64,000 nucleotides of DNA, taken from NCBI GenBank assembly GCA_002395235.1, contig DGWK01000008.1:34174-98173 (forward strand). The letters run 5' to 3'. The notes beneath the pieces are model-generated. The model was not told where the DNA came from, ran no database searches, and saw nothing but the letters and a program-made list of their open reading frames with translations. This document shows, one piece after another, positions 18,019 through 38,740 of this stretch. How positions within the stretch are numbered: the first letter of the stretch is position 1; each line of letters opens with the position of its first letter. This stretch comes from Lachnospiraceae bacterium UBA4260. Its GTDB lineage: Bacteria > Bacillota > Clostridia > Lachnospirales > Lachnospiraceae. Both the position numbers and the translations under genes were made by a program.

Positions 18019-18032
18019 GGGGGTGCACAATA

Positions 18033-20078: not shown

Positions 20079-20128
20079 AGCTGATTTTCAGCCAAACGAT
20101 TATTGGCCAATTAATAGTGGAATAATAT

Positions 20129-20168
20129 CAGGAGGCTGTCACCGGTCGGTGACAGCCTCCTGTTTGTT
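20129..20168 (+). terminator. Rho-independent terminator after fba
   Basis: caggaggctgtcacc / ggtgacagcctcctg perfect stem followed by tttgttt. Confidence 0.85.
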
Positions 20169-20213
20169 TGCGGCAATGCCCGGCATGCGGCCGTTTATTT
20201 TCAGCGGTGCACG

Positions 20214-20537: not shown

Positions 20538-20733
20538 ACTTTCCTCCTCTCTTGTACAGGCCTTGCTGTGCGTGCCATAGAAGTGGCGACACTATTCTTT
20601 TTTAACAACACCAACTATAGCACTTATCTTTTTGACTGTCTTTAAACCTGTAGTATAAAGGCGCCGCTGCTCCTCCGTGTCGGAAGATTGTCTCCCAGCC
20701 GGAAAGATGCGCCGCCGTGCGTACATGATGCAA

Positions 20734-20773
20734 ACGCCGCAGTCCCCAAGACAAACGCTCGGGACCGCGGCGT
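20734..20773 (-). terminator. Probable terminator hairpin downstream of the AAA/FtsH-like gene
   Basis: acgccgcagtccc / gggaccgcggcgt stem about 40 bp past the stop at 20816. Confidence 0.5.
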
Positions 20774-20815
20774 ATTATGCAGCATAATTACAATATAACC
20801 CTTTCGCTTATTCTC

Positions 20816-23800
20816 TCAACTGTTCAGAATCTCCATGATCTCTTCGCCTGTGAGGTGATTCTCTGCCAGCAGTTTCGCCGAGAGCTTCTCCACCTTGTCC
20901 TTTCCCTCTTCGATCATCCTGACCGTACCCGCCATCTCCTCCTGCAACAGGTTGTTGATCCTGAGCAGGTAATCTGAAGCCAGCGGCGTCTCCAGGATCA
21001 TTTTGAAGGGAAGTGCGATCATCTGGCCGCTCATCATGCCGTAGTCACACAGAAGGCTGCTGGCGTATCTGGTGGCGCTCTGAAGGTCGCTGGACGCTCC
21101 GGTGTTGAGGGACGCCTCCTTGCCGAAGAATACCTCTTCTGCAGCTCTGCCGCCCAACGCGCAGCGGATCTTCCAGATCAGCTCTTCCTTGGTTAAATTG
21201 GGCTTCTTCTCGCTGTTCTCGTGGGCCATGTAGCCGCCGAAATCGCCTCTCGACTCAATCGTGACATAGGAAGGCCTCTCCCCGGAGAGCCAGGCAATAT
21301 AGGCGTGCCCGGACTCATGGACGGATACCGACCTGTAATAGGCCTCGCTCCACTCTCTCTTTTCGCCGTAATTGAACTCTTCCAGTGCTGTCAGAAGATC
21401 GTCCCCGGTCGGCCGGCGGCCGTCATTGTCCGCGTTTCTGACCGCGAGGTCTATCACGTTCTGAAGGATCGCAAGGCTGGTTCCCGGCGTTCTGGTCGCG
21501 ATATTATGAATGACATCCTTGCTGATCTCTTCGAATCTCTTTTTCTCTGTGAGAATTCTCAGATACTTTTCTCTCTCCTCCTCGTTGGGGAGGTCGACGA
21601 GAATTCGGTTGTCGAACCTGCGGACAAGGGCCGGATCCAGCGACATGGGCCTTCCCTGTGACGGCTCTATATTGTAGTTGGTCGCCGCAAGCACAAATAC
21701 AGGATTGTTGAGATCCACCGTAAAACCGTCCATCTCCGTGAGCAGCGCATTCAGCGCGGACTCGGTGTGAGATTCTCCCGTCCTTGTCTTGCCGATCGCG
21801 TCGATCTCGTCAATAAAGATGATCGCCGGCGCATACTTTCTGGCTCTGTTAAAGATCGCGCGGATATTTGCCTCACTCTGTCCCACCCATTTGCTGAGGA
21901 ATGCTGTGGCATTTGTCTGAATGAAGGATACGTTGGATTCTCCTGCCATTGCTCTCGCCAGCATGGTCTTGCCGGTTCCGGGCGGTCCGTACAGGAGCAC
22001 GCCTTTGGGCGCCTTGCGGCCTTCCCTGACATACTTTCTGGGATTTGTCAAAAATCGAATGAAGGTCTTCAGCTCTTTTTTGGCATTTTCAGCGCCGATC
22101 ACGTCGTCAAATCGCTCCTTGGGCCGGGCTGCATCCGACAGAACCGTTGAAGCACTCTCCGCATCAATCGCCTGTTTCTTCTTAAAGCCATGATACCTGA
22201 TGACCAGTGTCCCGTCCGAGACGACCTGCGCAGTATTGTAGTCCAGCACATAGCCGTGCTTGGAGAACTCTCTGCTCTGGCGGTCAAGGAACACCGAATC
22301 GGACAGCTTCCTGACGGACTCCCGCACTGTCTCCTCGTCGTTATCCACAATAGAGATCACGCCTTCCGCTCCTCTTTGGATAAAGAGGCCAATGTCTGTC
22401 TCCTGGTACTTTTCTCCTGCTTCGATCAGGTAGATCGGAATATTCGTTCCTTCTTCCACGACCGCGCCGAAAGCATCCAGGCCAAAAGAGTGGTAGTCAT
22501 CCAGGCTTATGCCGCCTGTGCCGTCCATTTCAAGGCCCTTCTTAAGATCGATCAGAATGAGAGCGAGCCCCATGCTGACCATCTCTCTTACCTGCGCGAT
22601 ACTGTCAAAGAAATGAACCGTATATTTCTCCTCCGGCAGTTTAAAGGAAGGACGGTCCTCCTCTCGGCAGACTACGCCGATCTCCAGCTTCTCCGGATTC
22701 TCAAAAAGCCTTCTGATCTCCTCAGGAACATCTTCCATGTCCATGCCGAGTTCAAATCTCAGATCACTTACGTCCTCCATCAGATCCGGATGACTTTCGA
22801 GCTGTCTGGAAAGTTCAAAGAGCTCATTCTTTATGAAATTATCGCCCTGCTTTGTGGCGATCCTGGCATCCATTGATGCGCCGTGATGGAACATGAACAG
22901 CGAAGAGAGCCTTTCGTCCATGGATACTTTATAGCCGTAAGTCTCCTCGACCTGCGCTGCCGTCCTGGCGAATTTCTCCTCAACGATGGAGACCATCGCG
23001 CGGCTGCCCAGATGGTTGAACATGATCACATTTCCGGCCGCGATCCTGGAGCAGATCGCTTCAGGGAATACCTTCTCCCCTGTCGTCGGGTTTGTCTCAT
23101 TTTTCAGAGCGCTCAGGATCACCGATTTCGGAGTGGAAGAAATCGTTCCGTAATTGCCCTCGTAGATACTGCGGCAGGCATTGGAAGTAAAGATAATGAT
23201 CGCCTGATCGAATTTCGTCTTTGTCTTTTTGAAGACGTTATCACAGCTGGCCTGGTCCAGGATCTGCAAAAAGATCTGGATCGTATTCCGGCTCGCCTTC
23301 TCAATCTCGTCAAAGATGAGCAGACATCTGGGGTTCTCGTCCACGAACTTGACCAGTTTCCCCTCATTGGCCGGGCTTCCGTTGTTGTAGAGCGCCGATA
23401 CGCCGATCAGCCCTTCATGGGCCTGGAAAGAGGAATACTCGCTCATATTGAAGGTTTCGTAAGGAAGTCCCATACTGTCCGCTGCGGTCTCAGCGAGCAG
23501 CGTCTTTCCGACGCCGGGAGGACCCACGAACAGGAAGGATGCCTTGGGCGTCTTGCGCTTTTCTTTATTGTCAAGGACCACGCCCTGGTAAACGCCCTGT
23601 ACAAACTCCGTGACAGGTCCCTGCTGGCTCTTAACAGTCTCCAGAAGATCCATTCGGAGCTTTCTGCAGGTCTCGGCGAGCTTTACGAACTTCTCTTTTT
23701 TCTCCTCCGGCGTCTCTTCCTTCTTCTCGAAGGTAAAGGAACCTGTCTGTTCTTCCTTCGGCGCCTCCGGGGCGGGCTGCGCAGACTGTGCGCTCCTGTC

Positions 23801-24346
23801 CGCCTCTTTCTTCGCAGGCTCACCCGCCTCTGCTTTCGCAGCTTCTGCCGCAGGTGCATCCTGCTTTTCCTTCTCCTCTTTCTCAGCCTTCGCCTTTGCT
23901 ATGAGTTCTTCCCGGATCTTATCCGTCGACTCCTTCAGCCGATCAGAAAGAGCGAATACATCATTGATCGAATTTCCCGTCGCAAATGCGGCCAGGATAT
24001 CGTCATTTTCTCTGTAGTAACCCGTCAAAATATCGTACGAAGAAGGCAGATCGACAACTTCTATGTCCTTTATGTCCCCGTTCAGCCACAGTGTTTCGAT
24101 ATAGCTGAACAAAAGAGGCATCCCGGTCTTGATCAGCTTCGTGTCCAGTCTCTTTTCTCCGAAAAAACGGACCGCATTCTTCCAGTCTTCCGACGGATCC
24201 TCCGGGCAGACGATCCCGCGCATTGTCTCATCCATTTCGACGAAGCTGGAATATCCGTAGTAAAGATGATAGGCTGTGATCGCACCGTCGCGAAACGAAT
24301 TCTTGCCGGCTAAGGACAAAGCCGCCTTTAATACATTGTTGTTCAC
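20816..24346 (-). CDS. Soluble fusion of ClpA/B-type AAA+, receiver-like domain, FtsH-type AAA+ and M41 zinc peptidase
   Basis: AAA 1: GPPGVGKT, LLIFDEIEKA. Middle: ALILIDL...IPIYLI...GAEGVI (CheY-like pattern). AAA 2: RFDDVIGAENAKKEL, GVLLYGPPGTGKT, IFIDEIDAIG, LDPALVRRFD. Peptidase: HESGH and ALGGRAAEEVFFG. No TM helix seen. Confidence 0.85.
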   Translation of the reverse strand: MNNNVLKAALSLAGKNSFRDGAITAYHLYYGYSSFVEMDETMRGIVCPEDPSEDWKNAVRFFGEKRLDTKLIKTGMPLLFSYIETLWLNGDIKDIEVVDLPSSYDILTGYYRENDDILAAFATGNSINDVFALSDRLKESTDKIREELIAKAKAEKEEKEKQDAPAAEAAKAEAGEPAKKEADRSAQSAQPAPEAPKEEQTGSFTFEKKEETPEEKKEKFVKLAETCRKLRMDLLETVKSQQGPVTEFVQGVYQGVVLDNKEKRKTPKASFLFVGPPGVGKTLLAETAADSMGLPYETFNMSEYSSFQAHEGLIGVSALYNNGSPANEGKLVKFVDENPRCLLIFDEIEKASRNTIQIFLQILDQASCDNVFKKTKTKFDQAIIIFTSNACRSIYEGNYGTISSTPKSVILSALKNETNPTTGEKVFPEAICSRIAAGNVIMFNHLGSRAMVSIVEEKFARTAAQVEETYGYKVSMDERLSSLFMFHHGASMDARIATKQGDNFIKNELFELSRQLESHPDLMEDVSDLRFELGMDMEDVPEEIRRLFENPEKLEIGVVCREEDRPSFKLPEEKYTVHFFDSIAQVREMVSMGLALILIDLKKGLEMDGTGGISLDDYHSFGLDAFGAVVEEGTNIPIYLIEAGEKYQETDIGLFIQRGAEGVISIVDNDEETVRESVRKLSDSVFLDRQSREFSKHGYVLDYNTAQVVSDGTLVIRYHGFKKKQAIDAESASTVLSDAARPKERFDDVIGAENAKKELKTFIRFLTNPRKYVREGRKAPKGVLLYGPPGTGKTMLARAMAGESNVSFIQTNATAFLSKWVGQSEANIRAIFNRARKYAPAIIFIDEIDAIGKTRTGESHTESALNALLTEMDGFTVDLNNPVFVLAATNYNIEPSQGRPMSLDPALVRRFDNRILVDLPNEEEREKYLRILTEKKRFEEISKDVIHNIATRTPGTSLAILQNVIDLAVRNADNDGRRPTGDDLLTALEEFNYGEKREWSEAYYRSVSVHESGHAYIAWLSGERPSYVTIESRGDFGGYMAHENSEKKPNLTKEELIWKIRCALGGRAAEEVFFGKEASLNTGASSDLQSATRYASSLLCDYGMMSGQMIALPFKMILETPLASDYLLRINNLLQEEMAGTVRMIEEGKDKVEKLSAKLLAENHLTGEEIMEILNS

Positions 24347-24502
24347 TGAATATCTCCCTTATTTCAAGCAAGGCTCTCAACGCGAGCCGCCGCGCCGCGC
24401 GCCGCCGGCACGCAGTGGGTAAACATACAGCAGCCGAACCACTCTGAGGATCCGGCTGCTGTGATTATCTGTTCTATATCAACTACCGATCAGACCGGCT
24501 TG

Positions 24503-24910
24503 TCACATGTACAGAGATCTCATGAACTCGGGATAAGCGTCATCACAGATCAGCAGCATTCTGTACATAAGGCCGAAGGTCTCATCGCCGCAGGTGCTGG
24601 GCTCAACAACCGCGTCGTCTGCCAGTGTCACTGTCATGTCATTCTCGTCGACATAGAATTTTACCCAGCTGTATTTCTTGTTCATCTGGGAGCAGAGTCT
24701 GAGAATGTTATTCATCTTGTCATCCGGAACTCTGATATAATTGAAGGACCTGAGGTGAACTTCATTTCTTTCTTCCTCAATGTGAATGTAAAGGTCGATC
24801 TTCTGCGCATTCTTGCCGCTGAATCCGGTCTTGATCAATGTTCCGTCCGGGGTTGCCTGATAGTGCCAGCCCTTAGAATCCATGTACTTACAAATCATTT
24901 CACAAAGCAT
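24503..24910 (-). CDS. YbjN-like protein (type III chaperone-like fold)
   Basis: Size 135 aa; pattern ILRLCSQMNKKYSWVKFYVDEND. Confidence 0.7.
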   Translation of the reverse strand: MLCEMICKYMDSKGWHYQATPDGTLIKTGFSGKNAQKIDLYIHIEEERNEVHLRSFNYIRVPDDKMNNILRLCSQMNKKYSWVKFYVDENDMTVTLADDAVVEPSTCGDETFGLMYRMLLICDDAYPEFMRSLYM

Positions 24911-25106
24911 CCTTAACTCCTTTCTGACTGTAAAACAGACAGTGACCTTTTTTACGCTTATTAGATTATACTAAATATTCAGCAACTTGAACAGATAATT
25001 AAACTGAAAGATTAAGTAATTGTGCATTTCATTCATAAAGAAAGCACGAACTATCCGATTATTCCTTTATATCGGACTTTAAGATTCAGAGAATGCTCAG
25101 CCGCCC

Positions 25107-26138
25107 TCACCACTGATAAGAGTTCTTTGCCGAAACAGGATATTCCGCCGTGTCCCAGACCCTGGACTGCTCCATATAATCATCTGAGACCAGCAGGAAC
25201 TGCTCTCTGTCTCCTCCGCCGTCGTTCCAGCAGGCGTCCATGTGATACCAGGCCCCGTCATACTTGACCATGTTCCAGGCGTGTCCGCCCCCCGGCGTAT
25301 CTCCCCAGATGTTTATGCAGTCAACGCCGTATTCATTCAGCAGAAGCTCACACGCTCTCGCGTATCCCTCGCAAACAGCACTGTGTTCTCTGAAAAGGCC
25401 ATATGCAGTGTGTGACTGGGGCGAATATCCTTCCAACACTCCGGGGTATTTCGAAAGATCCTGCGGCGGATACTCGTTATTGTCACACAGATAATCGTTG
25501 ACGGCCACGATGATCTCAAGATCTGATTTTCCTTTAAGATTCAGCTCACTCAGTGCGTCTTTCACAAGCTGCCGGGTCTCCTGCTTGATGCGCACAAGCT
25601 CAGAGACCGGAAGATCATATTCCAACACCAGCGTCCCCGAGTTTCCCGAGCTTGCCATACCATAGGTTCTTACGCATATACCGTCAATGGAATCCTTGCG
25701 CATTGCCCTGTCCAGAACTTTCAGGTAGATATCAAAGTCAAAAGTATAGCCGTTTACTAGCGTATACTGCGCCGTTGTCTTTGTCTCATCCATCATCCAG
25801 GCAAGGATTTTCTCGAGATCCTCATCCGAGCCGATCGTATCGTTCCCCGTCGTATCGAGCTGATCATCCTCGTCGGTCTGGTCTATAATAACCTGCGCTT
25901 CATCTTCCTCGATCGGCTCAGGCTGCTTGCGCATAGCGGAATAGGAGTCAATCAGTTCCTGCAGCATCTTGGCCGAATTGCCCGGCAGCTCATATTCGAC
26001 CTCTTCTTTCCCGTCCGCATAGCTGTCCGAGCCTGCCTGCAGCATATCAGACGGATTCTGGTCATTTCCTCCACAGCCGGCGAGCAGTGCAAGGCAGGAT
26101 AATACCACAAGAATTACTGACCATATTCTTTTTTTCAC
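25107..26138 (-). CDS. Lipoprotein with transglutaminase-like (Cys-His-Asp) domain
   Basis: Signal peptide with lipobox LLAG|C; AVCEGYA, GHAWNMV, MDACWND. Confidence 0.85.
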   Translation of the reverse strand: MKKRIWSVILVVLSCLALLAGCGGNDQNPSDMLQAGSDSYADGKEEVEYELPGNSAKMLQELIDSYSAMRKQPEPIEEDEAQVIIDQTDEDDQLDTTGNDTIGSDEDLEKILAWMMDETKTTAQYTLVNGYTFDFDIYLKVLDRAMRKDSIDGICVRTYGMASSGNSGTLVLEYDLPVSELVRIKQETRQLVKDALSELNLKGKSDLEIIVAVNDYLCDNNEYPPQDLSKYPGVLEGYSPQSHTAYGLFREHSAVCEGYARACELLLNEYGVDCINIWGDTPGGGHAWNMVKYDGAWYHMDACWNDGGGDREQFLLVSDDYMEQSRVWDTAEYPVSAKNSYQW

Positions 26139-26159
26139 AGCTTACCCTTCCTTTCCGGT

Positions 26160-29100
26160 CTATTTCTTTCCTTCGACCATCAATTTGAACGCTTCGAACG
26201 GATTTACATGGCTGCCTTCGCTTTCCAGAGTCTTCATATATTCTTTGAATGCCTTGAATCCTTCCCCGTATTCGTCTTTTCTCGCCATGAGTTCCTCTTC
26301 CATAGCATCTGCATAATCCGACTCGCCGAAATCGCGCATGGCACTTACTTCCACATAGCTGGCATGACCTTCCATGGCCACGAGGCCTCCACCCGGTCCG
26401 AGCTTATTCAGCTTCTTCAAGCCAATCTCCTCAAACTGCCAGTAATGCGTCAGCTCGTGGATCAGTGTCGACTGCACTGTGTTTCTAGGGCCGCGCGCCT
26501 CAATCCACAGCGCCTTCTTTCTGCCTCTGTCCTTGCGTTCACAGAAACCGAGCACTCTATCGTAAGGGCTGCCCTTCCCTATTCTCTTACGAATCGCTTC
26601 CGCGCTCGCGAATCGAAGATGCAGATTCTTCGGACGTCTGACTCCGTAGTGATAATACATATTATTTACTACCGTCTCATATAGCTGCCGGATCTCATCC
26701 TCCTGCCGGATCATCTGATTTTCACAGTCTCTGCAGATGCGGCGTCCGTCGTGCATCTCCTTCCAGAACACTGTCGGTTTACCGCAAAAAGAGCATCTAA
26801 TCCCGCCGGGGATATCGGGGGCCGTGGCAAAGCCTTCAGATTCCTCAAGCTTGGGCAGAAAGCTTTCACAGAATGATTCCAGCTCTGCAGAGGCGAAGAA
26901 CGCGGGCAAGGTATCCAATCCCAGATGCAGGAAACCGCCTTCTGTTTTTCCTGCCGGATCTGATGAAGCAAACCGCCTGTTATACCATTTCAGATAGTTG
27001 TCTACGATTCGGAACACTTTTATCCTGTTTTGATACAGACTTGAGATCATTCCCAATTCGATAGCGCTGTATTCAACAATATACAGCGATATTTTTTCCT
27101 CATCAGTGGAACTGTCTGCGATCTCTTCCATTTTTCCCGGACGGATGAAGGGGACTATACTATGGATCTTCTCCTCCGCTGACGCAGCGGCCGTGTCTTT
27201 AAAGAGTTTCGTCCAGTAATCATCTGACGCGTCAAATCGGGTGATGACAAACAGGTTCATATAACTGTCCGGGAACAGCGTTTTGAACAACTCCTGCATC
27301 ATGAACGCCAGAAGAAGGACCATTTGTTCTGCTTTATCTCCGGCCACCCTGCATGGGATCCGAATCTCCAGCATCTGAATGCTGTTCTTAACCTCTACGA
27401 GATCATTTCCTTCTTTTCCGTAGCGGTCATAAACTCTGCTGAGGGACATGCCCGCCTCAGCACCAAGATTGATTCCCCTGTCACTGCTCCAATAACCTTT
27501 GATAATTCGTTTGACATTGTTTGCCAGGTAGACGTTAAAATCAAGTACATCGTAATCCACACAATGATCAACGATCTGTCTGTTTCCGATTTCAAATTCA
27601 CTCGACTGATAATAGCTTTTGTGGCTTTCGGAAGCTACGTTTTCCGTGTAGACGATTCCATCCTCGATATTGAGTACATTGCGGAGAACACCTTTGATAG
27701 AGACAACCTGGTCTCGCAGGAAATAATTCATTACGTTATCTCGCAGTACAGGGATCTCTTCCACAGTCTCAGATGCCTTATGGTTCAGCTTAACAAACGA
27801 AGTCTGCCTGACCAGCTCCTTTTTAATCGCCTCGTTAATGAGGGTGATCGTCACCTGTCTCTCATATTCGTCAGTTGCCGCATTAAAGACAGTTTCTTCG
27901 CTGAAGTGGAAATGCTCATAGATATTATGATTTCTCTTTTTATCTTTGAGCACACTATTTAAAGCTACCCGGAGCAGATTGCCTATTCCTTTATAGTCCC
28001 AACCGTATTCTCTGCTTCTCTCCATGACATCTTTTTCCAGCATACCTGTATTGGCCATCTGCAGAAGAAGTGCCTGGAAGCGGCTGTGGTCGAGGTTGGA
28101 ACGCCAGCCGATCAAAGGCGCATAGTCGTTTTCTCTCCGGATCAGTTCTTCAATATTTTCAGCAAAATAATCTCTTAAAAGATACTGAGGCGAAACGATG
28201 TGGATCAGGGTACCTTTTTTTCCTCCGTATTTTAACCAGTTCCACAGTGTATTATACAGATTGAAATGATCATCATACAGAATGATCATATCCAGGTTTT
28301 CTTTCTCCAGGATATCTGAATAGTCATTGATCCGGATCCACTGAGAATAATCAGTATCTCTTCTTAAAAACCGGCGTATTTCCCTCTGATTGGCGCTCAA
28401 TGCCTTTCTATATGTCAAAAGAGGTTTGCTCTCTCCTGCATATACATGGACAGAAGGAAATTCCACGCCGACCGCGATCAGGGCTAACGTCATAGAAACG
28501 CCAATGTATTCCGAAAGGTCGCCGCCTATCCCCAATCGCCTCTGCGTTCTGTAATACCCCTCTTCGGCCCAGGCCATCACATAAGTTTCCACCTGATTGC
28601 CGACGTTCTTAAATGGGGTGATATCTTTACCGATGTAAGTTCCGAAACTTGCTTCCAGCGTCGGACTCTCCACTTCAGATACCAGCACATACTGATACTC
28701 TTTCTCAAACTCCTTCGAAATTCTCGAAAATTCGGAGAAGATCATTTCTTTGTGAATATTGCTGTATGCGCTGAATGTGACGGCTCTGTCGATCACTATC
28801 ATCTTCAGATTTTTGAAAAAGTCTTTTCTTTTGGCCAGCAGTTTGTAGCTGACAAGATCCTGAAAACCTATGACAAGAATATGGATCGTCTCATTGTTAG
28901 CAGCTTTGTCGCGGCCGCCCACGCTCCACATACACGTAACTCTATTGATTCGTTCAAGTCTCTCATCGACAATCCTTTGAAGTTCAACCGCACGCTCGTT
29001 GTCCATGCAGAGGATCAAAAAAGTGTCCCCTTCCGTGCAATAATAATTCATATACGCGCACAGATAAGTCAGGATCTCACCCTGCAGATAATCTCTGATA

Positions 29101-30116: not shown

Positions 30117-32182
30117 TCGCTTCCTCCGTTGATTTGTTGAGGCCAGTAAAAAGGATTTTCAATTACGCCGTAATTATAATCCAGTTCAATATCCGATGCG
30201 CTGTATCTACTGCCGATCGAATACCCCCTGATTCTGTCATTATAGAGAAGACTGAAGAAAGAGCATTTCTGAAGGTGTCTTCCGATTGCTTCTTTATGCC
30301 ACAAAAACTTCCTGTTCTCCTCAGTGCTATGAGTCCTCATATCTTCCAGATCCTGGAGATAATGATTCATGACATCAATAGCATTAATATTATTCATATA
30401 CTCTTCGAAATTGCGGGCTATCTCGTTATATCCCCTTGTAAATTTAATCAAATCTTTTTTCAACTGCTTCGTAGATTCTGCCATTCTTGCTCTGTAATAG
30501 ATGCCGGGCGCGCCCCATGCAAAGACCATTAACAGCGTGGCTGCGGCAGCACTTAAGCCGGCTCCTGCCAGATTCCACATATCACTGAAGAGGCTTTCCT
30601 GCAGCAGCAGATGGGAAAGCAGGACAAATCCGCCGGCCGTCAGAAATAGCAGGATGAAGTTTGCTAATCGTATCTGATCCCGCCTTTTTCTGTAGTAATG
30701 TATCTCCTTACTGCAAGTTCGGATGGCAAGATCCACATACAGCTGATCATCGTACGTTACATGAGGTATCATTTTCTGTCTTTTCAGATCTTCCAGCAGC
30801 TCTTCCTTTCTCCGATTTACTTTGCGGATCACCTCATCAATCTGGTCTGTGTCGTAAATCCTGTTGTCCGTTTTCTCCTTAGCCCTTTTGTCATTTCTTT
30901 GACGTATTTCGCTCTTATACAATGAGCTGAGTGTTTCCGAGAATTTTTCCAGGGAAACTTCCAGCCTTCCAAGCAGCTCTTTTAATTGCTTCTCCACGTC
31001 ATCCCAGGATTTTTCACTGTTTAGCGTGTGTACGCTTCTCTCGTACTCTTCCAATATTCCGGCGATCTTTTTCTCGTATTCGGTCCCGTCAAATTCACAC
31101 AGAAATCTCGCCGGTTCTTCAACGTTAAATTTCAGGCTTTCCTCAGCATTTGTATACCTGCCTGCCATTTCTCTCTGGCGGCTGCTCATTCTCTCTTCAT
31201 ACAGCATCATCATATTGCCGTATTTTTTCCAGATTACTTCATCATCTTTGGCATTTTTCCAGTTTTCCCTGGCTTTCTGTTTCAAAGTCGAATTTATATC
31301 ATTCTCATCTTTGCCGTCTGTGTTTCCGGCCAGCCCCGTAGTTATATAATCTACAATTCCCAGCAGTGCAAGCCTGTGTTCCGCAGTGTCGCTGCTGATC
31401 TTTTTTGTGAATACACTGAACGCGCTAACCGTTTCACTGGTGAATGCTACCAGATTGTGGATGTTATTAAATCGGGCAACTCTGTTTCTTTGTTCCTCAG
31501 ACAGGTTGTCTTTTTTCTTTGGCGATGGCGGCGGCGGCGGTTCCTTCCTGCTTTCTTCATATAATTTGTTGGTTGTATACCACTCGTAAAAATCATTCAA
31601 AAACTGGATTGTGACCGCGTCCTTCTTTTCGATCGATGCTCTCTTCATATTCTCGATGATCTCTCTCTCAGAAGGCAAGGTACCCGCTTCCCCCCAGTCA
31701 ACCCCCAAATACTCCATCAGGGCAGGAAGATCAAAAGTATGGTCTTCTATCTCATCGCCGATTCGTTTTTCATCGAGTGTATTCTCAACGTCATATAGTA
31801 ATATGACAGTAACGTTCTTATCCACTCTGTCTTTTGTCTTAATAAAGACTTTGGCGTTCTGCATACAGTAGTGAATTTTGAGCAGTCTGTAAAGAACGGT
31901 TTCTTTCCACGGCACATCTTTTTTGTATCTCTGCCGTACCCCGAAGATCAGTCTGTAATCACGAATCATATGAGAAGATTGGCCGATATAATTCTTGATC
32001 TTATATAACGCATTCTGAATGCTTCTGTTTTCGGGAGTCCCGCCGCCCTTCCCTGCGGTGTCATTAAAGCTTGCTTCCACAACATAAAACTTGTGATCAT
32101 TCTGCAGTTTATAAAAGAACATCTCGAAAGTCGACATGTTCAGGCATTCGTCCACGTTGATATAGAAATTAAACTCATTCAA
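30113..32182 (-). CDS. Hypothetical protein: N-terminal alpha/beta region, coiled coils, two TM helices near the C-terminus
   Basis: Long open frame overlapping the next gene by 4 bp; likely TTG start at 32182 after RBS GGAGG (ORF track starts at 32227); TMs LANFILLFLTAGGFVLLSHLLL and LAGAGLSAAAATLLMVFAW. Confidence 0.75.
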   Translation of the reverse strand: MNEFNFYINVDECLNMSTFEMFFYKLQNDHKFYVVEASFNDTAGKGGGTPENRSIQNALYKIKNYIGQSSHMIRDYRLIFGVRQRYKKDVPWKETVLYRLLKIHYCMQNAKVFIKTKDRVDKNVTVILLYDVENTLDEKRIGDEIEDHTFDLPALMEYLGVDWGEAGTLPSEREIIENMKRASIEKKDAVTIQFLNDFYEWYTTNKLYEESRKEPPPPPSPKKKDNLSEEQRNRVARFNNIHNLVAFTSETVSAFSVFTKKISSDTAEHRLALLGIVDYITTGLAGNTDGKDENDINSTLKQKARENWKNAKDDEVIWKKYGNMMMLYEERMSSRQREMAGRYTNAEESLKFNVEEPARFLCEFDGTEYEKKIAGILEEYERSVHTLNSEKSWDDVEKQLKELLGRLEVSLEKFSETLSSLYKSEIRQRNDKRAKEKTDNRIYDTDQIDEVIRKVNRRKEELLEDLKRQKMIPHVTYDDQLYVDLAIRTCSKEIHYYRKRRDQIRLANFILLFLTAGGFVLLSHLLLQESLFSDMWNLAGAGLSAAAATLLMVFAWGAPGIYYRARMAESTKQLKKDLIKFTRGYNEIARNFEEYMNNINAIDVMNHYLQDLEDMRTHSTEENRKFLWHKEAIGRHLQKCSFFSLLYNDRIRGYSIGSRYSASDIELDYNYGVIENPFYWPQQINGGSE

Positions 32183-32278
32183 GAGACTTTCCCTCCGTTC
32201 TATTGAACTCTCTGCAGAAGATGACAAGGCTGCTCTGCCTTACTGGCAGGCAGCCTGTCATAAAACTCCCTTGTTCGA

Positions 32279-35200
32279 TCAATAGGTAATGCTGATTTCC
32301 TTAAGCCGGTTCATATGCATCCGGATCTTCTTTTCAATTGGATCCAGAGCTGCACCGCTCGCCTCTTTTTTGCCGGTATTACTGGCTTTATACATGCGAT
32401 CGAGCGCTTCCTTATATATATCATCAGCAGCTGTATACTTGTCTGGAAACAGATTTTGCAGGTACTCTGTCAATGTCAGCTGGATTCCTTCAAACAGATG
32501 GTCCCAGCTTCTTTCTTTCATTCGCTCGTCCCGGATCATCGATTCAAGAATATCAAGAATATTACTGTCATCACTCTCCGGTATTTCCTGAATGAGATCC
32601 TTGAGCAGAGACAATTCATTGATCATGTCGTCCGGTCTCAACATTCCCATACTATTGCGTTCCTTCTCGTTATCATCTTCTGCGCGCTCTAATATGTTGT
32701 CTACCAGAAGCCTGTTGTTGCGAAGCGCCTTATAAAGATCCACATACCCCGAACGGATGAGAAGTCCCTTTTCGCGCACAGGAGTCCTGTATTTCTTTAT
32801 GTTTATATACTGCCACTTGTCTCCGCTGGTGATCCCGGGTACTTCTTCTCTAATGAATACATCCATCCCCATTGCGTAAAAGAATGCTTTTCTGATCATT
32901 CTGTCGCGGAAGAATCTCTCCGTTTTGGTCAATTCCGGAAGGAAACCGTCTTCGTGCCAGAACTGATCCAAATGCGGTGTCACAACAGTCTTGTAGGCGT
33001 CTTCTCCATATACGATCGGATCGAGCCCGATATTTGCAATTCTCTCTCTATAGAGCTCTGCAAACTCTGAGTCATAAGCATATTTTGACAATTGCTCAAC
33101 AGTATATTTGTGTTTGACTTTCATGCAGATGATCTCATATTTAGAGAAACTGTCATTTACCAGAACCGCAGGAATCATATAATCCGTCGCTTGTGTCTTT
33201 TCTGCTATTCGGTCTTCCGTTACCGCTTTGTTGAATTCTCCACCGCTCTGCTCGCCCGCTGCCGGGTTCATGGCAATATAAACATTTTCCGATGTGTTTT
33301 CATTGCTGTTCACGGAAATCATGGGGGCAGCCTCTGACATTGCCAGTTCAATTAGTTTTTTCTCGTAATCCAGACGATCTTTGTTAAAGCTCTCGGAATA
33401 CTCAGAGTATCCCTCAAGTTTCATCTGCTTCACGATCGCCTCTTTGATCGAGATATTAACAGTCTTGTCTCCCTCCACATCAACATAATCATAGATTTTC
33501 TTAAGGATCGCCGAATCAAATAAAGAAGCAATGTCTTCTTTAACGCGAATCCTTGTTTTTTTCCTCATCTCCGGCGAAACTTCAACATTTGTATCATTGT
33601 CAAAAAGGATTGTAGCCTGACGGAACAGCCCCAGGAAGACTCCTTCCTTGGCTTCTTCCGGTACCTGGAAATCAGAATACTTTGAAAAATCGCCGAAGGA
33701 CTGCTTAAATGCATCCGGACTTCCATACACAATGTGGATACCATAGGGGTTCTCAATGAAACTGTTTTCAAGATTATTCAGTTTTTCGTTATTTCCTTCG
33801 ATCCGGACTTCAATAGTCTGGAAGAAATCCTCATAATTTTTGGCGAGCTGGTCAAATCTCCGGCGCAAAGCTCTGTAAGTAGCGGTCTTGATCTGATTAG
33901 TACCGTAACTCTTAATATCTTCAATTCTCTGGTTATAGTATTTCTTATAATCTTCAACAACTTCACTGATTGCCTTCGAAGAAGGGAAAATGAAGAAACT
34001 CTTTTTGTTGTTTGCTTCATTGAGCATATAATGCGCTGTTTGAACACCTTTCTTTTCCGTATCAAAGTCCGTGTTCTCAAATCCCTTAATTGAAGACTGC
34101 GTTATCACATCCGGCAGCTTCGAGATTTTCTTATCCAGTTCCATAACCATTTTATAGCACAGATATCTGGCCACTACAGGATGCGTTTTCCCTATAAAAT
34201 TGTACACGCTCAAGGGGGATCCCTTACCCATCATCATTGTCTCATAGGATTCCGGAAATACCTCGTTAGCGATTTGATATCGACAGCTCTCTACATGATT
34301 GATCATAGCCTGGGCATAATTGTTGATCGCCTCGGTCCTTTCTGTGAACTGTTCAGATGCGACTTTATATTCTTTTATATTCTCATCGCTGAACCCGCAC
34401 TGTTTTTCCTTGGCTTGAAGCTGCGTCGTATCCAGGATCTCCTCAATTCGCGAATCGATTTTTTTCAGAAAACTTGTAACTTTGCTTCTCGGAGCCTTCG
34501 TGCTGTCGTTGTCTATAATAAAGGCCTCATTCTTGAGGGCGCCAAGCCTCCTTCCTTCTTTTCCGTCTGTCTCTGTTTCGAACTTACTGGTATAAACCTC
34601 CATGGTCTTGGGGATCTTCACAGAAGGATCTGATTTCTGCCTGCTCCTTGCGTCCCGCTTTTCCAATTCGCACAGCTTATCCAATAAGATCCATTCGTCG
34701 TTGACGATCTTTTTGCAGAAACGAAGAGTTATATATTCTTTAATCTGTTTATAGGGATATCTCAATAGGCAAAGCCCTGCGGATGAATAGCGATTCATCC
34801 CGGCGCACTGAATATCCAGAAGCGTTTCGTTATTCGCCGAGCTTGCTGCTGAGTCATAGACAGGCGTGAACAGCAATGTGTAAACAATAGCGGCAACCTG
34901 TTCCTTTATTGTTTCGAGGCTGGCCTCTCCCGTCGTTCCCTCGTTGTCGATTCCTTCTACAAGGTAAAATGAATCATAGGGAATCGTAGCTCCCTCATCA
35001 ATCATTCCCTTTATCTTTACCTGGACTTCCTCTCCTGTAATATTTTCACCGATCTTGAACTTTTTATATTTCCTTGTCAGAGTCTCCTTACCGATCTCAT
35101 ATTCCCTTTTCCAGTTTTTGCTATCGTAAAACTCAAATTCCAGGGTCTCAGTGTCGGATTCTTTTTCGGCCTGTGTCAGATACAGTGCATTCAGTTCTTT

Positions 35201-35827
35201 CAGGCATGCATATGCGTTGATCTTAACCGCGTCTCTGTTGATCTTTGAAGGATTGACGTTTTTGGTAATATCAGGTCCGACGAACATTCCCCTGATCTGA
35301 ATTTTGACTCCGGGCATGTTTTTTTTCATATAATCCCTGATATAGTAAGGGATCTGAAGAAATGACCCGGCACCGGTTCCTCCGGTGATCGATCCTGCAA
35401 TGAAAACATTAAATCTCTCGATACTTGTGTTTCCTGAATGTCTCAGTATTCGACTAATCTCGTTTTCCAAAATCAGAAGCGGATTGTGATCACTGAGTAC
35501 AGAAGCTGCCAGTACAAGACGCGCGATCGCGCGGATCTGTCCGGCTCCTTCAGAGAGCCCGCGCGTATTGATAAATTTGTTCGCAGGAAACCAATCAATT
35601 GCATTCAAAGCATTATTATTCAGCACTGACTTTACAATTCCCGTATCCCCGATCCAAATTTTTTGAACATTTTCAAGCTTATTCAGATCTCCCAGATCCG
35701 TGTCAATGGCAACAGCCCCCACGAAACTCTTTTGGGATTCAGGAAGCTTCCCCATTACTTTATCAACTATAGACCCTCCGATCCCTCCAAGTCCGACCAG
35801 CAGTACAGGTACATTTTTGGCTATCAT
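32279..35827 (-). CDS. Tubulin/FtsZ-like GTPase (Tubulin_2-type) with very long helical C-terminal extension
   Basis: VLLVGLGGIGGSIV (T1), AIDTD, GAGQIRAIAR (T3), GSITGGTGAG (T4 signature loop), NAYACLKELN, YSSAGLCLLRYP. Confidence 0.85.
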   Translation of the reverse strand: MIAKNVPVLLVGLGGIGGSIVDKVMGKLPESQKSFVGAVAIDTDLGDLNKLENVQKIWIGDTGIVKSVLNNNALNAIDWFPANKFINTRGLSEGAGQIRAIARLVLAASVLSDHNPLLILENEISRILRHSGNTSIERFNVFIAGSITGGTGAGSFLQIPYYIRDYMKKNMPGVKIQIRGMFVGPDITKNVNPSKINRDAVKINAYACLKELNALYLTQAEKESDTETLEFEFYDSKNWKREYEIGKETLTRKYKKFKIGENITGEEVQVKIKGMIDEGATIPYDSFYLVEGIDNEGTTGEASLETIKEQVAAIVYTLLFTPVYDSAASSANNETLLDIQCAGMNRYSSAGLCLLRYPYKQIKEYITLRFCKKIVNDEWILLDKLCELEKRDARSRQKSDPSVKIPKTMEVYTSKFETETDGKEGRRLGALKNEAFIIDNDSTKAPRSKVTSFLKKIDSRIEEILDTTQLQAKEKQCGFSDENIKEYKVASEQFTERTEAINNYAQAMINHVESCRYQIANEVFPESYETMMMGKGSPLSVYNFIGKTHPVVARYLCYKMVMELDKKISKLPDVITQSSIKGFENTDFDTEKKGVQTAHYMLNEANNKKSFFIFPSSKAISEVVEDYKKYYNQRIEDIKSYGTNQIKTATYRALRRRFDQLAKNYEDFFQTIEVRIEGNNEKLNNLENSFIENPYGIHIVYGSPDAFKQSFGDFSKYSDFQVPEEAKEGVFLGLFRQATILFDNDTNVEVSPEMRKKTRIRVKEDIASLFDSAILKKIYDYVDVEGDKTVNISIKEAIVKQMKLEGYSEYSESFNKDRLDYEKKLIELAMSEAAPMISVNSNENTSENVYIAMNPAAGEQSGGEFNKAVTEDRIAEKTQATDYMIPAVLVNDSFSKYEIICMKVKHKYTVEQLSKYAYDSEFAELYRERIANIGLDPIVYGEDAYKTVVTPHLDQFWHEDGFLPELTKTERFFRDRMIRKAFFYAMGMDVFIREEVPGITSGDKWQYINIKKYRTPVREKGLLIRSGYVDLYKALRNNRLLVDNILERAEDDNEKERNSMGMLRPDDMINELSLLKDLIQEIPESDDSNILDILESMIRDERMKERSWDHLFEGIQLTLTEYLQNLFPDKYTAADDIYKEALDRMYKASNTGKKEASGAALDPIEKKIRMHMNRLKEISITY

Positions 35828-35847
35828 ATATTTTTCCTCCTCATTGA

Positions 35848-38508
35848 TTAATCTATTGCGTAAAGAGTATTATCATCTTTTGCAAAATAGGTCCTTACTC
35901 CGCCCAAAGAAACCGGCTTGGAATGATTATGTCCTTTACCATTGTCCCGTCTTTCGGTCTGTTCCTTGATCTTTTCCAATATCTCTACAAAATCATCGCC
36001 TCTGGCCGTCCCCCAGTAACAGCCGACTTCGTCGGGGTTAAACTGCGGTTGTCCAGTGGTAGAAGGATATATTTTGATTCCTATATACGGTATTCTGTGA
36101 CAGGAGGGACCGGGCCTGATAAATCGCAGCGGGCTTCCCTCACCGTATGGTTTCAGGAACATTGTTCTTGTTTGAGCTGCGATCGGCGACAGTTCGTCGT
36201 CTTCTCCTCTTGCAAATGCATATATGTGCAGTTTCCTGTCTTTCTTGAATTTTGGTTTCCAGAAGATCAGATACAGTATGTAACAAATGGTAAATATTAC
36301 ACAAAGCTCTATGATCAGCGTGATCCAGTCCGACAGCTTTCCCCTGACCTCGACCACAACTTCCTGCTGCGCCGAATTGGCGTCGAGCACCGCGACTGCA
36401 TGGTAATTGCCGGTCGTGATCAGATACGGGAACAGCAGTTTTCTGAAGAAGCCTGTGCGCGGTACTGCGCTGTAGCTTCCGTCATCGTTCTGGACCAGTT
36501 CAATCCTCGCGTTCAGGAATCCGACTCTGTTCAGCAGTAAACCAAAGTCATCTCTCTCCACCGTGACATTTTCTTTGTCCAGCTTCAATTGCCTCGTGCC
36601 TGTAGTCTCGTTCTTCGAGAGCCTTTGAGGATGACCGTCTCCGATACCGTCCCGATCGGCATCTTCATCTCTGACGATCCAGATTACAGGAGCTTTATCA
36701 ACATTTTCCTTTTTATTTAATTCCTTCCTGTAGAAGGATCCCGGGTCATTTTCCGCTTCAAGCGCGTAAACGGAAGGATTGGGGACGTTAAACTCAACAA
36801 TTTCCTGTGCCGTGATGTCCCCCGCCTCATAATCGCAGACAATGGCGTTATCTCCGGATAGGAGCTTTATGTCTCTGTATTCGTTCGAAGGTTTGCTACC
36901 CTCTTCATTTCCGTTGACCTGATACGAAATATTCCAGTTTTCAGCGGCGGACAGCTTTGCCGCGTCGATCGGCTCACCGGTATTCTTGTCAATTGCCTCT
37001 GCATTTACAGTGATCACATCATCCGCTTCAACGCTTCCGAGAAGATTGGTTCCGTCAATATTGTCATATACAATAATGTCCTCAACACTTCCCTTCTGAA
37101 TAATCTTTAAGTGAATACCGGGATCCGGTCTGTATTCCAGAACATCTATGCTGATCGTATTGGAGTGTACCGGTATCATCCCGGGGATCGTCATCTGCCC
37201 CGTAAAGCTGTAAGATCCGTGCTGTATATCGTCCACATTCATCGTAAATCCCGAAGCTGTTTCTGTTCCCTGGTCCCATTTCTCTACGATCCCATAGTCC
37301 GTGCCGGAAGGCAGCAGGCTCTTATCCATCTCCTTGCCTGTAGACGGATCCACCAATGTCATGCGAAGCTCTATATCACTCCCCTCCGTAACCTGGGCGC
37401 CCGTTTTGACTTCGTTTCCGTCTATAAACATTGTAAGGGCAAGAGTAACTGCGGGCTGATACATCAGGACAAGCGATTTCTTGTCAATCGGAGCTGAAAA
37501 CTCTATCGTATACTTTCCTGCGGGAATGACCTGATCCTGATTAGAGATAACGGACACATTTCCGTGTAGATTAGGAGATTCAATATCTTCAAACCCGACA
37601 ATGCGTTCACTCTCCGGTCCAAACACATCTTCCGGCTCAGGACTCTGTACTTTGGCATTATTAAAATCCAGTATCAGTTCATTTCCTTCCGTGTCCTCTG
37701 TTTTTGCAGAAGTCACTTCCGCCTGCGAATTCTGTGTGAAAGCTGAGAGACTGTAGAGAGGAATCCTGGAGCTGACTTCGATCGTCTTCTCGTCCACAAA
37801 TTTGATATCCTTATCGTCATATTTCAGACGGCCTGAGATAGCGTTGGCCACATCATTCAGAGTCTCTACAATGTTATCCGAGTTCACCGATTCGAGTCCG
37901 TTGGCCGAATCCTCCGGTACCTCTTCAGAATTACTGCCGATTCCATAATAGAAGACACGCAGGGGAGATCCGTTGCTCATCGGCTTACCCTTGAGCGCAT
38001 TACACGCTGCTATGATGTCATCGTATTGTGATTCTCTTCTCTGAAAGATGCCATCAGTCATGATCACAAGCCAATATTGTGTAGTGGGATCTGAATCGCT
38101 GATACTCTCCAGTTTTTCCTCCGCCACATCAACAGAATTCAGCGGAGTCAGATTCCAGTTTGTCATTTTTGTTCGAATCTCATCGGCCGCCGCCTGCGGG
38201 TCAGAGATGTCCACCTCCCTCGCTTCCAGCTCAGACATATACGTGATGTAAAATTCGTCCTGAGGATTCATCAGGGCCGCGAATACCTGTGTCGCGTAGT
38301 TGGCCTCAGCCCAGGAATCAAAAAGGGTCCCCTCATTATCCCCGTACATACTGGAAGAATCGTCGAACACCAACGACACGATCTTCTTTGGCGCCTTGAT
38401 CTCTGATCCGCTCCCTCCCTGAGAAGTGGCAGATGCGGGAACAATCGACGCCGCAAATACCGCCACTATTACAGTCAGACACAGAAGTAGTTTTTTCACG
38501 TTTTTCAT
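35848..38508 (-). CDS. Single-pass membrane vWA-domain protein with large extracellular beta-rich region
   Basis: Signal peptide, MIDAS FDDSSSM with VIMTDG, TM WITLIIELCVIFTICYILYLIFW then basic KPKFKK, about 120-aa cytoplasmic tail. Confidence 0.8.
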   Translation of the reverse strand: MKNVKKLLLCLTVIVAVFAASIVPASATSQGGSGSEIKAPKKIVSLVFDDSSSMYGDNEGTLFDSWAEANYATQVFAALMNPQDEFYITYMSELEAREVDISDPQAAADEIRTKMTNWNLTPLNSVDVAEEKLESISDSDPTTQYWLVIMTDGIFQRRESQYDDIIAACNALKGKPMSNGSPLRVFYYGIGSNSEEVPEDSANGLESVNSDNIVETLNDVANAISGRLKYDDKDIKFVDEKTIEVSSRIPLYSLSAFTQNSQAEVTSAKTEDTEGNELILDFNNAKVQSPEPEDVFGPESERIVGFEDIESPNLHGNVSVISNQDQVIPAGKYTIEFSAPIDKKSLVLMYQPAVTLALTMFIDGNEVKTGAQVTEGSDIELRMTLVDPSTGKEMDKSLLPSGTDYGIVEKWDQGTETASGFTMNVDDIQHGSYSFTGQMTIPGMIPVHSNTISIDVLEYRPDPGIHLKIIQKGSVEDIIVYDNIDGTNLLGSVEADDVITVNAEAIDKNTGEPIDAAKLSAAENWNISYQVNGNEEGSKPSNEYRDIKLLSGDNAIVCDYEAGDITAQEIVEFNVPNPSVYALEAENDPGSFYRKELNKKENVDKAPVIWIVRDEDADRDGIGDGHPQRLSKNETTGTRQLKLDKENVTVERDDFGLLLNRVGFLNARIELVQNDDGSYSAVPRTGFFRKLLFPYLITTGNYHAVAVLDANSAQQEVVVEVRGKLSDWITLIIELCVIFTICYILYLIFWKPKFKKDRKLHIYAFARGEDDELSPIAAQTRTMFLKPYGEGSPLRFIRPGPSCHRIPYIGIKIYPSTTGQPQFNPDEVGCYWGTARGDDFVEILEKIKEQTERRDNGKGHNHSKPVSLGGVRTYFAKDDNTLYAID

Positions 38509-38672
38509 CTCGTCCCCCTGTTATATATTGCGCAAGCAATCCATAAATCATCCTCTTATATAATAAACAAATCACACTACTTGTACAAATTATAAATCTA
38601 AATCCTTTGAATATTGTGTAATTTTCTACATAAATCAAATCTTTTTCTGCTTTTTCTTCCGAATTCTCCGTC

Positions 38673-38702
38673 AAAAAAACGGCAGTGTATAACTGCCGTT
38701 TT
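38673..38702 (-). terminator. Terminator of the alpha/beta hydrolase gene; marks the upstream boundary of operon 1
   Basis: Minus strand aaaacggcag-ttataca-ctgccgttttttt. Confidence 0.7.
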
Positions 38703-38740
38703 CCGCGTGCTCATATAGCCCACTCCATGCGTAAAATTGT

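Follow-up and report, generated by a model that had tools for sequence, protein, structure and literature searches.

The FtsZl1 (Tubulin_2) family is the most diverged branch of the tubulin superfamily. FtsZl1 and the operons in which it accompanies a von Willebrand factor A (vWA) protein were defined in 2010, and a membrane-remodelling machine was predicted for them (Makarova & Koonin, Biol Direct 5:33, PMC2875224); Tubulin_2 has been equated with FtsZl1 (PMC9871819). Additional file 5 of the 2010 study has entries from Ruminococcus lactaris ATCC 29176 (RUMLAC_01526-01529) and Bacteroides capillosus ATCC 29799 (BACCAP_04121-04124) with the order vWA-FtsZl1-B5-B12, the vWA position being annotated COG2304 (PMC2875224). 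The C-terminal region of FtsZl1 proteins is described as coiled-coil plus alpha-helical. Here we describe a locus in Lachnospiraceae bacterium UBA4260, lying in a 64,000-nucleotide stretch of contig DGWK01000008.1 (GCA_002395235.1, positions 34,174 to 98,173) that is called the window below. The locus is very probably a horizontally acquired 13.8-kb cassette of five genes (24996-38759) in a rumen Lachnospiraceae chromosome, comprising the vWA-FtsZl1-B5-B12 subtype and a constant fifth gene.

Two further groups of described systems bear on this locus. The GAP1-N2 GTPase systems of Firmicutes and actinobacteria, which contain tubulin-coiled-coil proteins and transmembrane (TM) proteins with an extracellular vWA domain, are read as NTP-dependent conflict systems (Kaur et al. 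2020, eLife 9:e52696, PMC7159879). The YprA/MrfA helicase family is central to DISARM, Dpd and Druantia, and its 2025 census names no tubulin or vWA partners (bioRxiv 10.1101/2025.09.15.676423). The operon class itself is already known as a computational prediction of 2010. What is new here is the exact boundaries with an empty site, the mosaic and transfer pattern, the defence-island-like neighbourhoods, the transglutaminase-like lipoprotein as constant fifth gene and, as modelled, the YprA/MrfA-like dead-helicase identity of B12.

A first-pass annotation of the window, generated by a model from the letters alone, had assembled seven minus-strand genes into one system. Our calls of open reading frames (ORFs) return the same seven at exactly the same coordinates, and they are named g1 to g7 in the list below, which starts with the inserted block and gives in brackets the basis of each assignment (MIDAS, metal-ion-dependent adhesion site; AF2, AlphaFold2; GC, guanine-plus-cytosine content; L012, a cassette-free relative).

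24996 to 38759, no strand assigned: inserted block, the five-gene cassette, 13.76 kb (blastn against L012, GC)
35848 to 38508, minus strand: g1, 886 aa, vWA-like surface protein (MIDAS motif, topology)
32279 to 35827, minus strand: g2, 1182 aa, FtsZl1/Tubulin_2 GTPase (Pfam)
30113 to 32227, minus strand: g3, 704 aa as called, 'B5' position (AF2 model, TM prediction)
26160 to 30116, minus strand: g4, 1318 aa, 'B12' position (AF2 model, Foldseek, DUF6782)
25107 to 26138, minus strand: g5, 343 aa, transglutaminase-like lipoprotein (Pfam, NCBIfam)
24503 to 24910, minus strand: g6, 135 aa, YbjN (Pfam/NCBIfam)
20816 to 24346, minus strand: g7, 1176 aa, AAA_2 + AAA + Peptidase_M41 (Pfam/NCBIfam)

The spacing agrees with the description of short gaps and a 4-bp overlap that widen only around the YbjN-like gene: g1 and g2 are separated by 20 nt, g2 and g3 by 51 nt and g4 and g5 by 21 nt, g3 and g4 overlap by 4 nt, and the gaps flanking g6 are 196 and 156 nt. 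The true g3 is probably a 689-aa protein starting at 32182, because its homologues start there, and with this start the g2/g3 gap becomes 96 nt.

The boundaries of the cassette were set by a genome that lacks it. L012, a Lachnospiraceae metagenome-assembled genome (MAG) from roe-deer omasum, was found by scanning species-representative genomes with g7 (94% identical). By blastn, two segments of the window, 11080-24995 and 38760-48661, align collinearly with L012 at 90-97% identity; the 13.76 kb between them corresponds to about 85 bp in L012. With 13.76 kb missing between collinear flanks, the cassette is an insertion. In L012 a 282-aa abhydrolase gene, YbjN and g7 are directly contiguous and g1-g5 are absent; the insertion point is the intergenic space between the alpha/beta-hydrolase gene and the YbjN / AAA-AAA-M41 pair. 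A check of the insertion for an integrase and for direct or inverted repeats at its ends was negative, and a site-specific mobile element was rejected on these grounds.

Base composition follows the same boundaries. GC is 0.451 over 24996-38759, 0.524 for g6 and g7 together and 0.541 for the remaining window, while GC at third codon positions (GC3) is 0.49-0.53 in g1-g4 and 0.63-0.67 in g6 and g7. The coincidence of the low-GC block with the insertion supports an acquired cassette. The AT-rich block of the first-pass annotation thus exists but covers the cassette only, as g6 and g7 are near the rest of the window. The terminator hairpins placed by that annotation at both edges were not recovered, as a terminator scan flagged no hairpin at either cassette edge and its sole strong one lies at 20129-20162.

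The YbjN and FtsH-like genes are ordinary resident genes, not cassette components. A seven-gene system, with a YbjN adaptor and a soluble AAA-AAA-M41 protease as its proteolytic output, was suggested by the common strand and the closeness of the genes in the window and in two other loci (L007 and L014), and by a protease theme. This reading is effectively excluded. Both genes are present without the cassette in L012, and among about 37 loci they follow it only in the window, L007 and L014, which share one chromosomal site; they are missing from every other cassette lineage. Their GC and GC3 are host-like rather than cassette-like, and g6 retains its own upstream region, including a TATAAT, within host-derived sequence. 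Against L014, g7 is 99% and g6 98.5% identical at the protein level, while g1-g4 are 62-70% identical. The seven genes as one conserved operon are therefore ruled out by the L012 empty site, the locus census and base composition.

The identities given to these two genes by the first-pass annotation stand. g6 matches YbjN in Pfam and NCBIfam. g7 is unusual for an FtsH paralogue in being soluble, with no predicted TM segment; it combines a ClpB-D2-like AAA_2 module (267-397), an FtsH-type AAA module (783-918) and an M41 peptidase with an intact HESGH. The trio of YbjN, g7 and an XRE-HTH gene is resident in the related Lachnospiraceae MAGs L012 and L011 whether the cassette is present or not. A 608-aa ORF on the minus strand of the window (59027-60853), of canonical FtsH size, has a weak phmmer match to g7 (score 57), and from it the genome probably encodes a normal FtsH as well.

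The cassette was then followed through other genomes. A locus census with hidden Markov models for g1-g5 and phmmer for g6 and g7 covered all ORFs of all loci, 34 of which had been added by a metagenome scan with a g4 profile. The order g1-g2-g3-g4-g5 is kept wherever the contig permits, in about 37 loci of about 15 lineages and with g4 identity down to 25%. The neighbourhoods of six g2 homologues (28-79% identity) all contain Tubulin_2 together with a vWA-like protein, proteins of ~680 aa and ~1300 aa, and Transglut_core; YbjN and AAA/M41 come next in L007 alone, the closest relative. Co-occurrence in other genomes, which the first-pass annotation had proposed looking up, is therefore found for g1-g5 and not for g6 and g7. 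The named sources of homologues are Lachnospiraceae, Eubacteriaceae, Ruminococcus, Mediterraneibacter and 'Clostridia bacterium'. A g2 homologue of 38% identity (P0036) is labelled as from a Methanobrevibacter sp. MAG, probably by binning contamination, since every other named source is Clostridia.

The tubulin-like assignment of g2 is secure, as Pfam Tubulin_2 covers residues 9-375 at E = 1.8e-43, confirming the 1182-aa tubulin-like GTPase of the first-pass annotation. A T1-type loop GLGGIGG (nt 35774-35794) and a T4 signature GGTGAGS (residues 149-155, nt 35363-35383) are intact, and G12, G14, G15, G17 and G149-G154 are invariant or nearly so among 28 sequences. Pfam finds no FtsZ_C or Tubulin_C domain in g2, and the C-terminal ~800 aa contain no recognised domain. 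Tubulin_2 was found in all 122 g2 homologues. The N-terminal FtsZ-like GTPase domain with its glycine-rich loop of the GGGTG(S/T)G type, the long extension and the length of 1182 aa, within the ~1000-1200 aa of the class, place g2 in FtsZl1. The g2 homologue of L023 spans 3653-7206 as two overlapping ORFs (3653-5272 and 5191-7206) and is either a frameshifted pseudogene or the product of an assembly error.

g1 is predicted to be an N-out, C-in surface protein. A signal peptide (residues 1-29) is followed by a MIDAS consisting of D49, S51, S53, T121 and D152, with its DxSxS at nt 38350-38364; these residues are invariant in 7-10 homologues and have integrin-like spacing of 68 and 31 residues. 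Next comes a beta-rich stalk, variable in length, in which lineages differ by large insertions and deletions and which has a weak, Ig-like Big_8 match. It is followed by a single TM segment (724-753), KPKFKKDRK and a conserved cytoplasmic tail of ~130 aa. g1 itself has no Pfam or NCBIfam domain match, and Pfam VWA_2 matches two of seven homologues weakly, at 6e-4. The vWA assignment is thus motif-based, pointed to by the motif, its spacing and the weak VWA_2 matches, and the vWA trait of the FtsZl1 class, whose adjacent vWA proteins are often secreted or membrane-bound, is found here as an intact MIDAS DxSxS with signal peptide and TM segment under weak profile support. Of the surface vWA receptor proposed at first pass, the signal peptide, the invariant DxSxS...T...D, the one TM segment and the cytoplasmic tail were recovered, and a significant profile match was not. 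No sortase/LPXTG signal was found in g1 and no pilin genes nearby. In one locus (L035 1-3618), g2-g5 are present and no ORF matches the g1 profile despite 3.6 kb of upstream sequence; the vWA partner may have been lost or replaced there.

g3 occupies the 'B5' position. Its homologues are 625-704 aa long, close to the ~660-680 aa of B5, and lie between the FtsZl1 and B12 genes in all loci; no Pfam domain was found in any of the 38. In the AF2 model (predicted local distance difference test score, pLDDT, 78.7) an alpha/beta domain at the N-terminus is followed by very long helices and a helical C-terminus; a TM hairpin lies at residues 518-576, and both termini are predicted to be cytoplasmic. 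The best Foldseek matches, at non-significant E values of ~0.03-0.3, are a vWA domain, Mx/BDLP stalks and alpha-pore-forming toxins. With no match below E = 0.03, there is no ground for calling g3 a pore-former or a dynamin-like stalk.

g4, at the 'B12' position, begins with about five TM segments (residues 1-232). The remainder (236-1318) was modelled by AF2 with pLDDT 79.1 and a predicted TM-score of 0.71. In a Foldseek comparison the model matches MrfA (6znp_A) at E = 2.7e-21 over 918 aligned columns, with the helicase body at ~295-1100, nearly all of MrfA aligned and a TM-score of 0.57 normalised to MrfA. Matches to other superfamily 2 (SF2) helicases are 14 orders of magnitude weaker (E 1e-7 to 1e-6). 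RDYLQGE stands in place of motif I, and the residues at motif II are unconserved (VIDRA/VLTDG/VIAGG). Among 122 full-length cluster representatives of g4, Walker A and DExH occur together in none, HExxH is kept in 114 and the Cys pairs in 116. On this model g4 has a YprA/MrfA-like SF2 helicase fold that appears catalytically dead across the family; it shares the MrfA fold without being a functional member of the helicases, since motifs I and II are lost.

The helicase body of g4 is followed by a zinc ribbon (nt 26724-26795) with invariant C1108, C1111, C1128 and C1131. These four Cys could correspond to the zinc-binding domain DUF1998, but Pfam DUF1998 is not matched. A zincin peptidase comes last, with HELTH at 1220-1224 (nt 26445-26459) and EGHA at 1249-1252; HExxH and EGH are invariant in the aligned homologues examined for B12 traits. 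The metallopeptidase profile DUF6782 matches 16 of 17 g4 homologues, and g4 itself weakly. A TM pseudo-helicase with a Zn finger and an HExxH peptidase had been foreseen at first pass and is borne out by the MrfA match, the absence of motifs I and II, the CxxC...CxxC and the HELTH. Its 'DA1-like' label for the peptidase is rejected, as the profile matches are DUF6782, BSP and M78. The assignment to B12 is by features (~5 TM segments, four invariant Cys, HExxH and EGH, and the DUF6782 matches). Profile searches of PDB sequences with the alignments of g1, g2, g3 and g4 gave nothing significant. When the cytoplasmic part of g4 was used in phmmer, 582 clusters (50% identity) were found at E ≤ 1e-3 and 407 at E ≤ 1e-10, mostly of 1250-1450 aa.

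g5 follows g4 in all 37 loci that have sequence downstream of g4, making it the constant fifth gene. It is predicted to be an extracytoplasmic lipoprotein with a transglutaminase-like thiol peptidase core: a lipobox LLAGC with Cys22 and an acidic linker precede a domain matched by Pfam Transglut_core (1.8e-8) and by an NCBIfam family of transglutaminase-related lipoproteins (1.4e-16), and the triad Cys256/His286/Asp301 is conserved in six of seven homologues. The Cys-His-Asp lipoprotein of the first-pass annotation is therefore present with triad and lipobox. In L005 (15788-19844) and L006 (14749-18805) the g4 homologue has 932 aa and no Zn ribbon or HExxH domain, and the g5 homologue of this lineage lacks the catalytic Cys and His; the joint loss suggests that the proteolytic activities of g4 and g5 are functionally linked. 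These two loci also have an extra 699-aa gene upstream of g1, which recalls the 'B13' listed upstream of vWA in R. lactaris (Makarova & Koonin 2010, PMC2875224).

Near-identical genomes differ in whether they have the cassette, and its sequence is mosaic. Compared with L014 at the nucleotide level, flanks and g5 are 94-100% identical, while the g1 ectodomain is 72-78%, the g1 tail 46-58%, g2 54-69%, g3 60-76% and g4 64-76% identical. Compared with L007, flanks are 63-86% identical, the 3' half of g3 with g4 92-100% and the g1 ectodomain 85-97%. From these segment-wise contrasts, transfer and the exchange of segments at a fixed site have given the cassette a history of its own. The breakpoint in g1 is the ectodomain/TM boundary (window 36301) against L014 and L007 alike: the TM segment and tail (36301-35848) share the divergence level of g2, not that of the ectodomain (38508-36301). 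That the g1 tail travels with g2 hints at an interaction between them.

The genes flanking the cassette in the window are metabolic and transport genes, namely two glgC/glgD-like nucleotidyl transferases, class II fructose-bisphosphate aldolase, an XRE regulator, a BD-FAE hydrolase, rhodanese and MatE. A second, milder GC dip was seen at window ~49000-56000 (0.495-0.51, versus 0.53-0.58 elsewhere). Two features lie beyond g7:

20214 to 20537, minus strand: XRE-HTH gene downstream of g7
20129 to 20162: strong bidirectional hairpin ~650 bp beyond g7, past another small gene (terminator scan)

A neighbour survey covered 108 non-redundant flanking proteins from 26 loci. By Pfam, TIR_2 is found in 6 of the 108, in at least four cassette lineages (L008, L015, L020, L009/L023), together with three serine recombinases and two proteins with RyR domains. 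By PADLOC, three flanking proteins are CARF-PD-(D/E)xK/Csx1-like, one is DruE-like and one matches PDC-S02. In at least four lineages TIR proteins are encoded 0.2-7 kb beyond the cassette, on its downstream side; they include two tandem ~1000-aa TIR+TPR proteins, one TIR+DUF218 protein right after g5 and one adjoining a transposase:

L008, 22376 to 23539: TIR gene downstream of the cassette
L020, 14659 to 16506: TIR gene downstream of the cassette
L023, 17099 to 23420: TIR genes downstream of the cassette (also in L009)
L015, 21245 to 23132: TIR gene downstream of the cassette

Ser/Thr-kinase-like homologues are near cassettes of three lineages (L008 1-2370; L022 5775-7103; L037 15954-17228), and a kinase association of FtsZl1 operons was noted by Makarova & Koonin 2010 (PMC2875224). 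No flank family recurs in more than three lineages. A fixed sixth gene was rejected, as the downstream genes vary (subtilase, TIR+DUF218, RyR, radical SAM, unknowns).

Among described systems, the vWA/FtsZl1 operons of the B5/B12 subtype are the same as the cassette in that g1-g4 agree with them in order, size and features and both occur in gut Clostridia, an agreement of layout; Mediterraneibacter, the name of one cassette lineage, is the genus in which [Ruminococcus] lactaris is now placed. On the other hand, the 2010 table lacks the transglutaminase-like lipoprotein, constant in the loci here, and the helicase fold of B12 was unrecognised in it. With the GAP1-N2 systems the cassette shares a tubulin-domain protein with a C-terminal coiled coil (g2) and a TM protein with an extracellular vWA domain (g1). 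It differs in having no GAP1-N2 TRAFAC GTPase, second tubulin or YtkA-vWA protein, and has a dead-helicase/zincin protein and a transglutaminase-like lipoprotein instead; no GAP1-N2-type family match was found in g1-g5 and no such gene in the insertion. Among the YprA/MrfA helicases (MrfAB repair, DISARM, Dpd, Druantia), MrfA is the best structural match of g4, in which a 4-Cys zinc module comes after the helicase body. However, identity is ~10%, Walker A and DExH are lost in the g4 family, and g4 is membrane-anchored, with a zincin peptidase fused in place of a nuclease and no DUF1998 match.

FtsZ, TubZ and tubulin share with g2 the N-terminal GTPase domain with glycine-rich T1 and T4 loops, but g2 has no FtsZ_C/Tubulin_C and no recognisable T7 loop, carries an extension of ~800 aa and lies outside a division or plasmid-partition context. 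The cassette is also unlike MoxR-vWA ternary or Bat-type systems, as no MoxR-type AAA+ accompanies the vWA protein; no MoxR or other AAA+ gene lies inside the insertion, and the only nearby AAA+ is the resident g7. Eukaryotic integrins have a metal-dependent vWA/I-domain head on a stalk, one TM segment and a short tail coupled to cytoskeletal proteins. The resemblance is an analogy only, with homology limited to the vWA fold; in the cassette a tubulin homologue would take the place of the cytoskeletal partner.

With its components, predicted topology, intact catalytic-site motifs (g2 loops, g4 zincin, g5 triad, g1 MIDAS) and dead g4 helicase site established, the cassette allows a working mechanism to be proposed, tentatively and at rather less than an even chance. 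We conceive that g1 would bind a ligand outside the cell through its vWA head, which carries the MIDAS and sits on the beta-rich stalk, and that the lipoprotein thiol peptidase g5 would act extracellularly on g1 or the ligand. The signal would pass through the single TM segment of g1 to its conserved cytoplasmic tail, which would nucleate or release GTP-dependent assembly of g2 at the membrane, where g2 would be held by the hairpin-anchored coiled-coil protein g3. The g2 assembly would in turn switch on the cytoplasmic zincin peptidase of g4, whose dead helicase body would serve as a scaffold or sensor, not a motor. The logic suggested at first pass is partly retained here, as an outside sensor, a membrane tubulin-family GTPase and a protease still fit g1-g5; its YbjN and FtsH-like steps are dropped, these two having no place in the cassette.

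As for its purpose, a role in inter-genomic conflict, as defence against phage or other invaders or as contact-dependent antagonism, is the likeliest of the readings, its probability falling a little below even; the whole explanation, identity and mechanism and conflict role together, we put at about even. The conflict role is suggested by presence or absence in near-identical genomes, mosaicism and defence-type flanks, by the g4 fold being nearest to the YprA/MrfA helicases of DISARM, Dpd and Druantia, and by the reading of related tubulin + TM-vWA operons by Kaur et al. 2020 (PMC7159879). A housekeeping role is less likely. A narrower form of the conflict role, in which the cassette is a bacterial 'integrin-to-cytoskeleton' immune module whose MIDAS-vWA senses phage adsorption or hostile contact and, through tubulin assembly, activates a zincin carried on a fossil YprA-type helicase, is doubtful at present.

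Several results weigh against this explanation. No significant vWA profile match was obtained for g1, and a vWA-only alignment against PDB sequences was negative; the g3 model has no significant structural relative in the PDB by Foldseek, none being below E 0.03. Makarova & Koonin 2010 found in FtsZl1 no T6-H7/T7 elements or C-terminal domain used by FtsZ for polymerisation, so that GTP-dependent assembly of g2 is an assumption. The sequence of steps, and what the two peptidases would cleave, are read from topology only. L005/L006 keep the operon with both proteolytic activities lost, which shows these to be dispensable in some lineages, and proteolysis may not be a universal output. The defence-type flanks are raw counts and suggestive only. 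A tblastn search with g2 gave only one weak phage match and two weak plasmid matches, and a g4 profile scan of IMG/VR viral contigs gave none; phage or plasmid cargo was rejected on this near-absence, and there is no mobile-element signal beyond the insertion itself. PADLOC (PADLOC-DB v2.0.0) has no model for g1-g6 and gives g7 generic AAA+ matches only (IetA, TRIP13 and similar), which rejects a known catalogued defence system. No experimental study of FtsZl1 operons or of a tubulin-based defence system was found in the literature. The statement at first pass that no characterised system has such a composition holds as far as experimental papers and PADLOC go; the vWA-FtsZl1-B5-B12 order, however, had been catalogued in 2010 (PMC2875224).

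Two other explanations share much of this evidence. The cassette could be a membrane-remodelling or envelope machine, for vesicles, envelope repair or morphogenesis, with the peptidases acting in maturation and no conflict role. Such a machine has been predicted in print for these operons (Makarova & Koonin 2010, PMC2875224), and it would suit a system in which three of five proteins are membrane-anchored and one is a lipoprotein, g2 belongs to the cytoskeletal GTPase superfamily, and g3 is long and helical with a hydrophobic hairpin and weak matches to dynamin-like stalks and alpha-pore-forming toxins. The g3 matches are not significant, however, and a remodelling machine sits badly with a cassette that is present or absent between genomes 90-97% identical, whose alleles are replaced at 46-78% identity within flanks 94-100% identical, and whose distribution is patchy, in neighbourhoods rich in TIR, CARF and recombinase genes. 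We therefore regard it as unlikely.

An integrin-like adhesion or colonisation module, in which g1 would be an adhesin for ligands of the host, of plant fibre or of neighbouring cells, g5 would cross-link or trim it and the cytoplasmic proteins would anchor or regulate it, is slightly less probable still. g1 resembles Gram-positive pilus-tip adhesins, and also integrin I-domains, in its extracellular MIDAS head, variable stalk and Ig-like features. The transglutaminase-like lipoprotein also lies outside the cell, the bacteria with the cassette are Clostridia of gut and rumen, and mosaicism is common in strain-variable surface loci. But an adhesin needs no 1182-aa tubulin-like GTPase, dead helicase or cytoplasmic zincin, and the most diverged segment, the g1 tail with g2, is cytoplasmic rather than in the ectodomain. 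The lack of a sortase/LPXTG signal in g1 and of pilin genes nearby also speaks against adhesion, and the neighbours are of defence rather than adhesion type. The conflict role is thus kept as the preferred reading, at the strength given above.

If the narrower 'integrin-to-cytoskeleton' form of the conflict role is true, the cassette would be the first tubulin-based defence or conflict system with a trigger outside the cell, with ~580 clusters (50% identity) of the signature protein B12 concerned. FtsZl1/Tubulin_2 has had no experimental function in the 16 years since its description. The cassette offers a clean handle on one subtype, being a defined 13.76-kb, five-gene unit with a topology model and catalytic residues to mutate, and with natural relatives that have the cassette, lack it or have a swapped allele. 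The link between B12 and YprA/MrfA, together with the TIR and CARF flanks, makes remodelling versus conflict a testable choice. Should conflict prove right, a surface-triggered, cytoskeleton-based logic would be added to bacterial immunity; should it prove wrong, the cassette would still give experimental access to a membrane machine that is widespread among Clostridia of the gut and rumen.

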